Assembly (NCBI GenBank): GCA_000004985.1
Contig: GG738866.1
DNA: 64,000 nt
Strand: one strand, 5' to 3'
From: Naegleria gruberi
Taxonomy: Eukaryota
Numbering within the stretch: the first letter of the stretch is position 1; every line of letters begins with the position of its first letter. A program made the position numbers and the translations under genes. The notes beneath the pieces are model-generated. The model saw only the letters and a program-made list of their open reading frames with translations. It searched no databases and was not told the DNA's origin. This document shows, piece after piece, positions 3,989-10,413 of this stretch.

Positions 3989-6199
3989 ATGAGTAAATTG
4001 ACAAGTGTCATGTTGCTTGTGGTGGTGATGTTCGCCATCTTAGCACATTTATGCGCAGCACAAAGTACTTTCAGCACTACAAATGAATGTAAATTCTGTA
4101 AAACTGCTGTTGAAATGGTGGTTAGCAAATATGGTAAGTAAAATAATTCATGATGTCATCATGAGTACTGACACACCATTTGACAGTCAAACCAGCATTT
4201 GCTAAAGCCTTTTGTAGACGTATGGGATTTAAATTCTGTACTAAACTTGAAACCTATCTTGAAGGAGCTAGATCAATTAAACATGCCAAAGATTTGAAGA
4301 GTAATTTGGCATTGACAATTTGTAAGGGTGCTTTAAAGATTTGTTCCAATAAGAACCAAAAGGAAACAACACAACAAGTTGATGAAGTGACATATGTTTT
4401 CCAAATTGTTGATGGTCCAAAGTTTTTCAATTTCACAGAACAATCTGATGCTTTCGACTCAATTAATGGAAATGCCACTTTATTTGGTTATTATTATAAT
4501 AGTTCTGCTCATTCAGTTTTTAATGGAACAATGAATACTACTGGAGATGTTTCATTCAATGGAACTCATAATGTTTTTGTTAATGGAAGTTATATTCATC
4601 AAAATGGATCATTGTTTATTGGAAACAATTTGACAGTTATTAATGGAAGTGTTTCACATAATGGATCTTTCCTCATCACAAATAATACCTATCACCATAA
4701 TGGTAGCACCTTTATGAATGGTAGTATTTCAAATGATTTTATGGGAATTAATGGAACTTTGAATTCTACTGGATATATCTATATTTCTAATTCAACTTTC
4801 TATTCTAATGGTTCAGTAACAAAGAATGGATCAATTTCATATGGAAATGGTACTTTTGAAGGAAATGGAACTCATTCACACTCTGGTGTTATCAGATATC
4901 ACAATGATACCATGTATCACAATGGTTCATTGAATCATAATGGTACAATGAATTATGGTAACGGTACATTCTTCTCCAATGGTTCATTAGCTCACAATGG
5001 TTCAATTCATTACAATAATGGTTCAATTTATCACAATGGTTCATTGAATCATAATGGTACAATGAATTATGGAAATGGTACATTCTTCTCCAATGGTTCA
5101 TTAGCTCATAATGGTTCAATTCATTACAATAATGGTTCTGTTTATCACAATGGTTCATTGAATCATAATGGTACCTTGTATTATGGTAATCAAACCTATT
5201 TCAATGGTTCTACATCTCAAAATGGAAGTGTTTGGTATCACAATGGATACCATTTCTCACAATGGTTCATTGAATCATAATGGTACAATGAATTATGGAA
5301 ACGGTACATTCTTCTCCAATGGTTCATTAGCTCACAATGGTTCAATTCATTACAATAATGGTTCAATTTATCATAATGGTTCATTGAATCATAATGGTAC
5401 AATGAATTATGGAAATGGTACATTCTTCTCCAATGGTTCATTAGCTCACAATGGTTCAATTCATTACAATAATGGTTCTGTTTATCACAATGGTTCATTG
5501 AATCATAATGGTACCTTGTATTATGGTAATCAAACTTATTTCAATGGTTCTACATCTCAAAATGGAAGTGTTTGGTACAACAATGGATCAATTTCTTACA
5601 ATGGTTCATTGAATCATAATGGTACTATTTATTATGGAAATGGATCATTGTCATCCAATGGTTCATTATCTCACAATGGTTCAATTTACTATAATAATGG
5701 AACTATTAACCATAACGGATCAATTGTTTACAACTCTAGTACTGGCTCTGATTCATCTCTTTGTTGGGGACAATCCGTTTGCATTCGTGGTGATTATACC
5801 TCTAGTGGTAAACTCAATTCCAGTTTATTCGATAATGCTGTTGGACTCACTGGTAACATGACTGTAAATGGTGATTTGATTATCAATAGATCTTTCAATG
5901 TTCAAGGTAACTTGTTCGTTAATGGTACCCTTAGATTGCACGGTTATTTGAATGTTGCTGCTGGCAGTTCATTCACTTTGTGGGGTAAGATTGTTGTGAA
6001 TGGAAAGATTGTCGTCAGTGGAAATCTCAGTATTACCAGTTTGAAATCCGGCAGATTTAACATTGATTCTTCCAATACTTTATCAGTCAATAACAGCAAT
6101 GTTTACTTTAAGGGAAAGAGTTTCAGCGTTTTCGTTAATAGAAATGGTGAAGGCACCTATTCTGTTAATAAGGAAGTTTCCACCCATGCAAGAGGATAA
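3989..6199 (+). CDS. Secreted saposin-like plus NxS/T (N-glycosylation-sequon) repeat protein. Exons 3989..4133 and 4187..6199 (53-nt intron). One frame break near 5248 inside the tandem repeats.
   Basis: Signal peptide MSKLTSVMLLVVVMFAILAHLCA. Six-Cys saposin-B-like module CKFCKTAVEMV..VKPAFAKAFCRRMGFKFCTKLE..ICKGALKIC. Then about 40-aa NGS/NGT-rich units HNGSLNHNGTMNYGNGTFFSNGSLAHNGSIHYNNGS. C-terminal beta-rich region GDLIINRSFNVQGNLFVNGTLRLHGYLNVAAG. Confidence 0.6.
4921..5600. repeat. Tandem coding repeat: 120-bp (40-aa) units arranged as two 340-bp higher-order copies starting at 4921 and 5261.
   Basis: The string aatggttcattgaatcataatggtacaatgaattatgg recurs at 4921, 5041, 5261 and 5381. 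The 340-bp period is not a multiple of 3: copy 1 has ggataccatttct where copy 2 has ggatcaatttct, which explains the frame break. Confidence 0.8.
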
Positions 6200-6250: not shown

Positions 6251-8573
6251 TTATCGTCTGTGTGCGTGGAGTATTCCCTCCCCATGAATAGCCAAGTCCT
6301 CTAAAGTATCAGATCCATGAATTTGAGCTCCTTGTTCCGTGGAAAAAATAATTTCATTCTCATTTAAGGAGTGATGTTGACAGTAGGCAGTGAAAAGTTT
6401 TTGTAATGCAGTCGATCGCTTAATTTTAAAATAAACCTCGATATTATTTTCATCCTGTATGTAGATCAAGTAACAGTAATCTAAACTAACTTACAATTAC
6501 AACAATTTGGGCAACACTGTCATCTGGTATATCAGTTGTTGAACTTCTTTTAGATCGCAGTAATCTTCTTGTATCTCTAAAAAATTCTCCATACTCTTCA
6601 GTTACGAATTCAGTAAAAACTGAATAACTATTGTGCTTGATTAAATCAAATGGTGTTACCCCAGCCTTATTTTCTTTTCCAAGGAGAAATGGAACTTTTT
6701 TCAACAGACCTGTAATTGGATAGCTAGATATTTTGTGATTGTACAAAGCTAACTGGATATAATGTAAAAAATTATCTCCAAACTCATTCTCTTCGTATAG
6801 AGAAAGATCCTGATTATCTAATTCCTTGAATATAATATCTATTGTAAATGGACTAGTTTGCGAAATAATGATAACTAGCAGTGGAACATGAACAAATTCG
6901 CTATATATTTCGAAATTTTTAGGCAAACATTGAATCTTTTCATACCACAATTGCATAAACTCATCCTTCTGTGTTTTTAGTAGATAAAGTACTAGTTTTT
7001 CTAAATAGATATAGTTACAACTAGAATAATAGTATTTAACTAAAGATAAACACAAATCTCTGCTAATCTTTCCAATACTGTATAGTACTGTTAAAAAAAC
7101 CTCGTCAGACAATGTACAAAAGAGTAACTCTTCAAGATTTGCTTCAAATCTCCATCCATTAAACATTCCAAAATATATCAATCTTTCCGATTCCTCATTT
7201 AAAAATAATTTTCCATTTTGATAGGTATTTGATAAATAAATTAAATATTGAAATACTTCAGGATTAGAAACTTCCAAGCCATTTAAGGCTAGTCCTGCAA
7301 TGGGTAATTGTATATCAATCACCAAAATATCTAATATTTCTTTCATTAAAAACAAGTCGGATCTATAAGGGCTGTCCATCAATTTCGTAAAATCAAATGA
7401 ATTTGGAATGCAAGACATCATATAGTCAATGAATTTAGAACCAAATTTTTTGCTCATTAACGAAAGATACTTCTTCATCCCATTTCCAGTCGAATTAGGG
7501 AACTTGAAGGTGTTACACTTATACTTCTTCATTAGAATATCCTCTTCTTTTGTATTAGTTATTATTTCAAGTTCGTTGACAGTCTCTAGTAATTGTTCAG
7601 AGTCACCAAATAATGTCACTTTCTCTACTTTCTTACAATGTTTGGTGATAAAGTTAGCAGAAGGATCTAATAATACTAAATGTTTAACAATTGTATTTCC
7701 TTCAAACTCATTGATTGAGTTGTTCTTTTGGAGCACAGGAGATGATCTAAATACTAGTTTAGTATAATTATAATCGAGCAAATTCTTTGATATTGGTATT
7801 GGTGGGGGTGGTGCGTGAAAGAAGAATCCATCATCAAGATAATACCTTTCGTCAACATCTTTAGTATCGCGTTCCAATTTGCCAGAAAAAATTGGAACTC
7901 CATCCTGAAAGAGATGTTTGGGAATTATTTTGGAACTACAATCATCATTTTGATATAAATAGAGCTCATTATCTTGTAATGTGTTGGTTTTGTAGAATTC
8001 TTGTTGCTTTAGTAAATAGAGTATTCTTTTCAAATAATTCTTATCGCCACTCACAAGAACTAATTCTTCCATTGACAAAATTTTGATCATCATTCTCCTG
8101 TTAAACTCTTTTGAAATGACTCTCATTTTGTGATAGTTGACCATTGGAATATCAGTACAATAGCCACCTTCTTCCAAAACTTTGTTGAGCCAAATTGGAC
8201 AAGAATTCAAATCTTTAAATTTTCTTTCCAAACTCTTCCATCTACTCGTAGTAGGAATAAATTCAATAATATCATATCTTATATCGATATTCAACTTTCT
8301 TATTAATTCACAATCAATTTCTAATTGTTGTACATTAATTTGACTTTCAAGCCTTTTTTGATCTTGTTCAATCCAGCCTCTCGCAACATCACCCACAGCA
8401 AAATACAAATTATCACTCACAACATTTCGGAAGGCTTCATAAGAGGTGCTTTTGTATTTTGTTTGCAATTTTTCAAGCATTTTCCGAGACTCTTTATCAA
8501 TTTCTGAGGAAAGCAATCGTTCAATCACAAAAGCCTCTACAGAGAGTTTACCTGGTTCCCCTTGTGTGATCAT
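6251..8573 (-). CDS. Large (about 763-aa) protein of unknown function with a C-terminal SUMO/ubiquitin-like domain. Exons 6495..8573 and 6251..6454 (40-nt intron).
   Basis: The 695-aa ORF ends ...DDSVAQIVVI at a GTAAGT donor. The downstream exon encodes DENNIEVYFKIKRSTALQKLFTAYCQHHSLNENEIIFSTEQGAQIHGSDTLEDLAIHGEGILHAHRR, a SUMO/Rad60-SLD-like fold ending HRR* with no GG. Confidence 0.55.
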
Positions 8574-8820: not shown

Positions 8821-10413
8821 ATGCCAGATTATTCAACTCAAGCAACCGAACAAATCAGATTCCCAGAAACTGAGTACAAGAAACACCCAACTCTCAAAAT
8901 GAGAGCTCTCCAATGGATGGGCAAGAAAACAGTTAAAGTCAATGAAGTAAGCCGTCCACAAATCACTGAACCAACAGATGTCATTGTAAAGGTAACAACC
9001 TCAACCATTTGTGGAAGTGATTTGCACTTGTACTTTGGAGAATTCTCTGGAATGCATCAGGGAGATATTTTGGGGCATGAGGCAGTTGGAATTGTTGATG
9101 AAGTTGGTGCCAATATTAAGAATGTTAAGAAGGGTGATAGAGTTGTTGTTTCTGCTGTCATTTCATGTGGTCAATGTGAATATTGTGAGAGAAAGGAGTT
9201 TAGTTTGTGTGATATGACTAATCCTAGTAAGGAAATGGAGAAGATGTATGGTCATAGAACTGCTGCCTTATTTGGTTATTCTCATTTAACAGTAAGTTGT
9301 TAGAATAGTTTTGATTCTAATACGGAAATTTATTAGGGAGGTTATGCAGGTGGTCAATCAGAATATGTCAGAGTTCCATTAGGTGATCAAAATCTTCTCG
9401 TTGTAGAGAATGCAAATCTAAAGGATGATTTGCTCATTCTCTTGGCTGATGTTGCCTGTACTGGTTTCCATGCCACTGAATGTGCTGATGTTCATTTCAA
9501 TGATAAGGTAAGTTTCGAATAGAATTTCTAATACTGAATTCTAATCATTTTCAAGGTTGTTATCTTTGGAGCTGGTCCCGTTGGCTTAATGGCAGCTATG
9601 TGGTCTTTCTACAGAGGTGCCCAACACGTTGTCCTCATTGATGGAGAAGAGTACAGATTAGAAAAAGCTCGTCAAGTCTTTGGAAACCTCAACGAATTGG
9701 GAGGAATGAAAAAGGCAGATGTTGAGCTATGGAAAGGCAAATCAAAGAACATTCTCGAATCTGATTTGCAATCATTATCATTGAGTTCACCATTCACCTC
9801 AGGTAGTGAAAGCACTGAAAAGAAAATAGAAAGCAAACAAGAAAATATTCCATCTGAATGTTTCAGTGGAAGTAAAGCTTTCGAACAAGAAATTCCAAAA
9901 CATGTCCAATTCCATACCATTAATTTCCACGATTGGGCATCAGTTGATGGTGGAGTTGTCAAGGCAGTTCAATCCCTAATTCCAGGAGGACCTGATGTTT
10001 GCTTGGATGCTGTTGGTTTCAGATTCGAAAGAGGATTCCTTCACACCATTGAAAGATCTCTTGGATTGGAGACAGACACTCCTCAAATTCTGAATGATTG
10101 CATCATTTGTTGTAAGAAGGGTGGCAGATTGGGAATTGTTGGAGATTACTTGAATAGATGTAATGATTTTGCAGTTGGTCCACTCATGGAGAAGGGTTTG
10201 AATTGGAAGGGAGGTCAAGTCTTTGTTCAAAGATATTGGAAGGATTTGTTGAGAGTTTTTGAAACCAATCAGCTCAATATTGATCCAACCTTTATCATTA
10301 CTCATCAAGTTCCACTCAGTCAAGCAGATAAGGCCTATGACATGTTTGCCAATTATAAGGATGGTTCAATCAAAGTATTATTGAAACCTGGAATGGATAC
10401 CATCAACTTGTAA
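8821..10413 (+). CDS. Zinc-dependent alcohol dehydrogenase family (MDR) protein. Three exons: 8821..9291, 9337..9507, 9556..10413 (introns 45 and 48 nt).
   Basis: GHEAVGIVDEVG, CGQCEYCERKEFSLCD (structural-zinc Cys cluster), GGYAGGQSEYVRV, and the Rossmann motif VVIFGAGPVGLMAA. Includes an unusual S/E-rich insertion of about 100 aa (about 9700..10000). Confidence 0.75.

Follow-up and report, generated by a model that had tools for sequence, protein, structure and literature searches.

The gene considered here, NAEGRDRAFT_48893 of Naegleria gruberi, lies on the minus strand of a stretch of 64,000 nucleotides from contig GG738866.1 (assembly GCA_000004985.1), hereafter called the window, and its product appears to end in a SUMO-like domain (SLD). 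Among described proteins, the closest in kind are those of the RENi family (Rad60 of S. pombe, Esc2 of S. cerevisiae and NIP45/NFATC2IP of mammals), in which a polar, charged N-terminus of low complexity is followed by two C-terminal SLDs, or by one in plants (PMC549199). Their SLD2 binds the backside of Ubc9, and mutation of residue D68 of Smt3 abolishes backside binding (PMC7849368). With these proteins NAEGRDRAFT_48893 shares an integral SLD located at the extreme C-terminus, devoid of Gly-Gly and belonging to Pfam family PF11976. It differs from them in having one SLD, preceded by about 690 residues that are largely folded and include ankyrin repeats, in its altered Ubc9-contact loop and in the absence of any sequence relation outside the SLD.

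Free SUMOs (SUMO1/2 and Smt3) provide the best sequence matches to this SLD, with approximately 25-39% identity, the same beta-grasp core, the FKIK and L..AYC motifs and, ahead of beta-1, a polar stretch comparable to the SUMO N-terminal tail. Unlike them, the SLD possesses neither a start codon of its own nor a Gly-Gly, is four residues short, has lost the acidic patch, carries a one-residue insertion and forms the C-terminal end of a large protein. A third point of comparison is UAF1/WDR48, the WD40 deubiquitinase activator of animals and fungi, whose C-terminal SLD is reported to recruit partners via sequences resembling SUMO-interacting motifs (SIMs). There too a single scaffold protein bears a non-conjugatable SLD; the scaffold of NAEGRDRAFT_48893, in contrast, is an ankyrin-repeat protein from a family that seems to be confined to Heterolobosea.

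The reading that we favour, and regard as rather probable, is that NAEGRDRAFT_48893 comprises two exons encoding 760 aa and has captured a copy of SUMO, which would now serve as a fixed, non-conjugatable SUMO mimic or docking module. From its N-terminus, the protein would be composed of a helical block, a disordered linker, ankyrin-like repeats, a short basic/acidic linker and one C-terminal SUMO-family beta-grasp domain. The literature that we found holds no account of NAEGRDRAFT_48893, of an SLD in Naegleria or of the histone H3-tail family described below.

Gene structure and the predicted 40-nt intron

The proposed gene model consists of three elements.

6495..8573, minus strand: exon 1 of NAEGRDRAFT_48893, starting with the ATG at 8573..8571; 2079 nt, 693 codons, ending ...DDSVAQIVVI
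6455..6494, minus strand: predicted phase-0 spliceosomal intron of 40 nt, GTAAGT...CAG (CATACAG ends at 6455), sequence GTAAGTTAGTTTAGATTACTGTTACTTGATCTACATACAG
6251..6454, minus strand: predicted exon 2, 67 codons (6454..6254) followed by TAA (6253..6251); absent from the public model

Exon 1 is 100% identical over residues 1-693 to XP_002677619.1 / EFC44875.1 / UniProt D2VEG8, and NAEGRDRAFT_48893 stands in the databases as a 695-aa 'predicted protein' of Naegleria gruberi of unknown function. When the intron is retained, translation meets a stop after two more codons (..VIVS*, intron codons 2-3 being AGT TAG), which yields an open reading frame (ORF) of 695 aa. As this ORF is the public entry, the public model runs into the intron and omits the final exon. 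The initial annotation of this locus had described a SUMO-family domain without Gly-Gly, joined in frame to the upstream ORF by a 40-nt GTAAGT...CAG intron, and the matches to PF11976 and to SUMO chains of the PDB reported below bear this out. Its coordinates and sequence were correct as well; only the length of 695 aa given for the upstream protein needs amending, exon 1 contributing 693 residues to a spliced product of 760 aa.

The spliced junction 6495|6454 reads ...CAAATTGTTGTAATT|GATGAAAATAAT..., and the exon 2 product starts with DENNIEVYFKIK (DENNIEVYF...) and ends with ...GILHAHRR* (full reading DENNIEVYFKIKRSTALQKLFTAYCQHHSLNENEIIFSTEQGAQIHGSDTLEDLAIHGEGILHAHRR). When all GT..AG pairs around the junction were enumerated, 6494/6455 was the sole one to combine a consensus donor, an in-frame join and a complete beta-1. 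The intron is also typical of the genome, since a survey of donors joining long open frames returned ten other GTAAGT introns in the window, 34-54 nt in length and ending in TAG, AAG or CAG. The GC content by codon position points to a similar coding pattern in both exons, with 0.50/0.31/0.29 in exon 2 and 0.39/0.27/0.27 in exon 1.

The strongest argument for the splice is a domain match that would span the junction. Both the Pfam and the SUMO alignments pass over it without a gap, from AQIVVI in exon 1 into DENNIEVYFKIK in exon 2, and the beta-1 Val, invariant in all aligned SUMOs, is encoded by exon 1. Exon 2 contains no Met codon. With no Met and with beta-1 in exon 1, exon 2 is no independent gene and the fusion needs exactly this splice. 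A free ubiquitin-like protein gene, the case that the initial annotation had named as its own refutation, is thereby ruled out. Taken together, the organisation in two exons separated by a 40-nt intron is very probably right. A word-index search with a junction-spanning fragment of 165 aa returned zero matches, and as it missed the known 695-aa entry too, it is uninformative.

Retention of introns is common in eukaryotes, N. gruberi included (PMC6142364). In NAEGRDRAFT_48893 it would produce the annotated 695-aa form, cut after beta-1 and deprived of a functional SLD, and one may speculate that splicing acts here as an on/off switch.

The C-terminal SUMO-like domain

The domain and the linker that precedes it occupy the following positions. 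The predicted local distance difference test (pLDDT) is that of the AlphaFold model presented below.

6263..6512, split by the intron, minus strand: SUMO-like domain, residues 688-757; beta-1 AQIVVI in exon 1, the rest in exon 2, ending HAHRR*
6513..6578, minus strand: linker, residues 666-687 (RDTRRLLRSKRSSTTDIPDDSV); a basic patch, then a Ser/Thr/Asp-rich part; pLDDT <50 from residue 678

By its sequence the domain is SUMO-like. Its match to Rad60-SLD (PF11976), a Pfam family in which SUMO itself is included, reaches 37.5 bits (E 2e-9) when an 84-aa fragment is searched and 32.4 bits (E 8e-8) with the whole protein, for a curated gathering cutoff of 23.8 bits. This match is the only one in the protein; it begins in exon 1 and extends over residues 689-756, corresponding to positions 2-69 of the 72 in the profile. 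In the PDB, chains of SUMO1, SUMO2 and Smt3 align with 64-74 residues of the SLD, with E values between 1e-7 and 5e-6.

The end of the SLD, ILHAHRR*, aligns with IEVYQEQTGG of SUMO, so that the stop falls four residues ahead of the Gly-Gly, and nowhere does the domain contain a GG. For these two reasons the SLD, as judged from its residues, cannot be processed, activated or conjugated. Residues F36, K37, V38, K39, T42, K46, L47 and Y51 of SUMO1 correspond to F, K, I, K, T, K, L and Y in the SLD, and the alignment with SUMOs gives A for H43 and H for R54. In SUMO-SIM complexes these SUMO1 positions belong to the SIM-binding groove of beta-2 and alpha-1, most of whose residues the SLD has thus kept.

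Several observations weigh against the favoured reading. The acidic patch of SUMO, MEDEDxID, has become IHGEGILH in the SLD, the Arg of the SUMO 'RF' motif is replaced by Ile, and one Gln is inserted between the Glu aligned with Smt3 D68 and the invariant Gly; given these losses and this insertion, the SLD is diverged and could be decaying. Over the SLD, the alignment-based AlphaFold model has a pLDDT of 30-50 and draws only beta-1, beta-2 and alpha-1, which are correctly placed, and a single-sequence model (pLDDT 39) was unusable. Since the predicted model is of low confidence in this part, the fold identity of the SLD rests on its matches to solved SUMOs. The exact 760-aa product finds no match in a collection of 15 billion proteins, and the public model has 695 aa. 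No orthologue with the same architecture is present in the searched data, so the conservation of exon 2 is not measurable. SIM binding by the SLD, finally, is purely what we infer from its groove residues.

A part of this evidence could also be accommodated by a relic exon: a copy of SUMO would have landed downstream of the ORF and be decaying there, with the 695-aa protein as the sole real product and with an intron that is unused or an SLD that is functionless. An exon missing from the public gene model, an SLD without acidic patch and RF arginine and with an insertion at a key loop, and its occurrence in one paralogue of one species only speak for such a history. The frame, however, is intact over 67 codons in a genome of 34% GC, and base shuffles of exon 2 remained open in 133 of 20000 cases (0.7%). 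The stop comes directly after beta-5, beta-1 stands in frame and at the exact spacing at the end of exon 1, and both splice sites agree with the consensus. Conservation also extends to the hydrophobic core and to residues of beta-2/alpha-1, and suffices for a score above the Pfam curated cutoff. We therefore consider a relic unlikely.

The initial annotation had related the protein to the genome-stability factors of the Rad60/Esc2/NIP45 type. As a RENi member or analogue, it would bind the backside of Ubc9 through its SLD and steer sumoylation in genome maintenance. The position of a non-conjugatable SLD at the C-terminus is indeed that of RENi proteins, and the single SLD of plant RENi proteins (PMC549199) offers a precedent for the lone domain found here. 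Binding to the backside of Ubc9 requires the residue at Smt3 D68 / SUMO1 E67 (PMC7849368), and in the alignment the SLD has a Glu there. Yet this Glu is now separated from the invariant Gly by the inserted Gln, and the second acidic patch is gone. There is only one SLD, and in place of a polar N-terminus of low complexity the protein has a folded one with ankyrin repeats; its composition is rich in Leu and Ile.

The large exon was also to be checked for SIMs, as the initial annotation had suggested. Its four [VIL]-rich, acid-flanked matches comprise three in confidently folded segments and one that is beta-1 of the SLD itself; none is credible, and the disordered region contains no SIM-like motif. 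No RENi protein occurs among the 90 relatives retrieved with phmmer, in which residues 1-660 lead to heterolobosean paralogues only and the SLD to SUMO and poly-SUMO proteins. The assignment to genome-stability factors of this type is thus not supported, and a RENi-like role appears very unlikely.

We return to the capture of SUMO as a docking module. A single gene of a paralogue family of Heterolobosea would have acquired the copy at its 3' end, as all other members lack the SLD. In the linker, the stretch SSTTDIPDDS ahead of beta-1 seems to resemble the polar N-terminal tail of free SUMOs, and this resemblance suggests that a whole SUMO copy, intron included, was captured in frame. Permanently attached to its carrier, the SLD could act as a SUMO mimic that docks SIM-containing partners onto the targets of the ankyrin repeats. 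Such a docking role is to be preferred over that of an Esc2-like E2 cofactor, because the SIM groove is the best conserved surface of the domain whereas the acidic surfaces facing E1 and E2 are lost.

Two further similarities of the SLD were encountered. Tandem SUMO-like domains, 8-15 per protein, make up a poly-SUMO-like architecture, striking in itself, in the giant proteins (1000-2700 aa) P0002 (Effrenium voratum), P0003 (Biecheleria cincta), P0004, P0006 and P0007, which were retrieved as SLD matches; P0002 and P0003 are dinoflagellate proteins, and all are unrelated to NAEGRDRAFT_48893 outside the SLD. The SLD helix LQKLFTAYCQHHSL (6380-6421, minus strand) resembles the core LLPVLCQAHGL of the transcription activator-like effector (TALE) repeat, with no homology. 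TAL effectors occupy the top PDB rows (E 1e-21) through an artefact of summation: LQKLFTAYCQHHSL matches the 34-residue TALE repeat dozens of times below threshold, at 0.4-5 bits each, and these matches are added up.

The N-terminal region and its paralogue family

Upstream of the linker, two regions can be delineated.

7920..8444, minus strand: family-specific N block, residues 44-218; motifs W-I..DQ, LxxLxxDxKYxIIxFIPTxS and HKMRLIxKEFNxRM
6534..7376, minus strand: helical-repeat domain, residues ~400-680; its C-terminal part, ~590-680 (NEFGDNFLH...KAGVTPFDL), is made of ankyrin repeats

When 1.84 billion representatives were searched exhaustively with phmmer, more than 20 relatives of 500-990 aa were found that share two blocks with NAEGRDRAFT_48893, at residues ~44-218 and ~380-660. 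Matches with both blocks (P0005, P0008, P0010, P0013, P0018, P0019, P0022 and others) have whole-protein E values of 1e-30 to 1e-8, the value of 1e-30 for P0005 counting both conserved blocks of the protein. The members in N. gruberi are NAEGRDRAFT_67849, 51003, 48660, 52520, 72320 and 69892. Elsewhere the family includes FDP41_001350 of N. fowleri, C9374_007277 and others of N. lovaniensis, ABK040_007932 and others of Willaertia magna, and proteins from Naegleria-like metagenome contigs. All these paralogues are unnamed and without a confident Pfam domain, and their overall identity with NAEGRDRAFT_48893 is 19-29%, the best relative reaching 29%. A word-index search with the family alignment added nothing new. 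The family thus appears restricted to the heterolobosean genera Naegleria and Willaertia.

AlphaFold, run on an alignment of 28 sequences, gave a model with a pLDDT of 67.5 and a predicted template modelling score (pTM) of 0.63. The confident stretches are residues 55-205, 290-350 and 400-680, and residues 211-288 are disordered; 409 of the 760 residues, located in helical and strand-helix domains, have a pLDDT of at least 70. The statement of the initial annotation that the N-terminal 690 aa have no obvious domain does not hold: the region places the protein in a heterolobosean family of paralogues and contains ankyrin-like repeats.

PF11976 is found in none of the 27 other family members, so NAEGRDRAFT_48893 alone carries the SLD, and no SLD-coding DNA occurs downstream of four paralogues examined on their contigs (L001-L004). 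As the SLD is unique to one member, for which the searched data contain no closer orthologue, the fusion looks recent and limited to the N. gruberi lineage.

The N block has no Pfam match and no match among PDB sequences. It may be an F-box split by a loop of 30-90 residues, an unproven lead drawn from its motifs. Helices are modelled at 96-105, 143-150 and 155-166, with strand-helix units after them; a putative split F-box would be followed by these units, which resemble leucine-rich repeats. NAEGRDRAFT_48893 could then be an adaptor of a Skp1-cullin-F-box (SCF) ligase, that is, a substrate receptor of a cullin-RING enzyme that recruits targets, SIM proteins for instance, with its ankyrin repeats and SUMO mimic. 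The pattern LxxLxxDxKYxIIxFIPT ... HKMRLIxKEFNxRM does resemble LPxELLxxIxxxL...VCKxW, and the order of the modelled helices and strand-helix units is in keeping with it.

With hhalign, the probability of an F-box rises from only 20% for the native profile to 75-90% once the loop is removed (P 2e-6 to 2e-5 over 34 columns), against 28-61% for control joins, the reference being a small, hand-typed F-box alignment. The Pfam F-box is nevertheless matched in 0 of 28 family members, F-box proteins are absent among the PDB sequences found with either the native or the insert-deleted profile, and there is no structural match. An SCF adaptor is accordingly a highly doubtful explanation of the gene.

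Another trait of the family lies at the N-terminus. In about 12 of the 28 members the protein opens with a copy of the N-terminal tail of histone H3, near-exact in some and degenerate in others; a histone fold is present in none. The start of P0077 matches the canonical H3 tail at 28 of 28 residues. The tail is found in P0077, P0056, P0082 and P0064 of Willaertia magna, in P0050 of N. fowleri (FDP41_001350), in P0046, P0029 and P0018 of N. gruberi (72320, 69892 and 52520, respectively) and in P0019 and P0042 of N. lovaniensis, as well as on contigs L003 (471-2972, P0026) and L004 (4908-7382, P0022). In these two metagenome contigs the tail shares an uninterrupted ORF with the rest of the protein, hence it is no chimera of gene models. 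NAEGRDRAFT_48893 itself starts with MITQGEPGKLS and has no H3 tail, nor is there any H3-tail coding sequence in the ~250 bp upstream.

The H3 tail copies carried by many paralogues hint at a nuclear or chromatin role for the family. Pushed further, they would make it a heterolobosean family of adaptors with built-in handles for chromatin signalling, in which H3 tails or SUMO are displayed as decoys or baits to the modifying, reading or SUMO-binding machinery, and in which the N block, if it is an F-box, might couple the partners to ubiquitylation. We hold this wider scheme to be quite unlikely.

Neighbouring genes and significance

The SLD gene has a neighbour on either side. Between the end of the convergent gene (3989-6199, plus strand) and the stop codon of the SLD lie ~50 bp. 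The gene opens with a signal-peptide-like start (MSKLTSVMLLVVVMFAILAHLCAAQ); beyond a GTAAGT donor at 4134 comes a Cys-rich segment, then a region of near-tandem repeats, rich in Asn-Gly-Ser/Thr and hundreds of residues long (NGSLNHNGTMNYGNGTFFSNGSLAHNGSIHY...). The frame breaks inside these repeats, between ORFs 4180-5280 and 5168-6199, possibly owing to an intron, a frameshift or a slip in the assembly. Near its C-terminus a Bactofilin-like match remains sub-threshold, at 20.4 bits for a cutoff of 27.9.

The divergent gene at 8821-10413 (plus strand), separated from the SLD gene by a common promoter region of ~250 bp, is of the zinc-type alcohol-dehydrogenase-like kind (ADH_N at E 2e-22, ADH_zinc_N weak). 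Its GTAAGT introns measure 45 nt (~9292-9336) and 48 nt (~9509-9556), and its second coding block holds a long insertion that is atypical of the family, at residues ~40-120 of ORF 9589-10413.

The novelty of this locus credibly lies in a new domain combination, an SLD with ankyrin repeats, of a known kind of module, together with a correction of the annotation. The public model of NAEGRDRAFT_48893 would be corrected, and the case would indicate that short terminal exons behind 40-nt introns have been missed in the annotation of N. gruberi.

Beyond the gene model, NAEGRDRAFT_48893 would represent an independent, lineage-specific instance of a SUMO copy fixed as a non-conjugatable module on an ankyrin-repeat scaffold. 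It would thereby support the 'built-in SUMO' as a recurrent evolutionary solution that extends beyond the Rad60/Esc2/NIP45 family. The paralogues bearing H3 tails, for their part, would open a testable route into the biology of an early-branching eukaryote in which few components of the SUMO pathway have been characterised.

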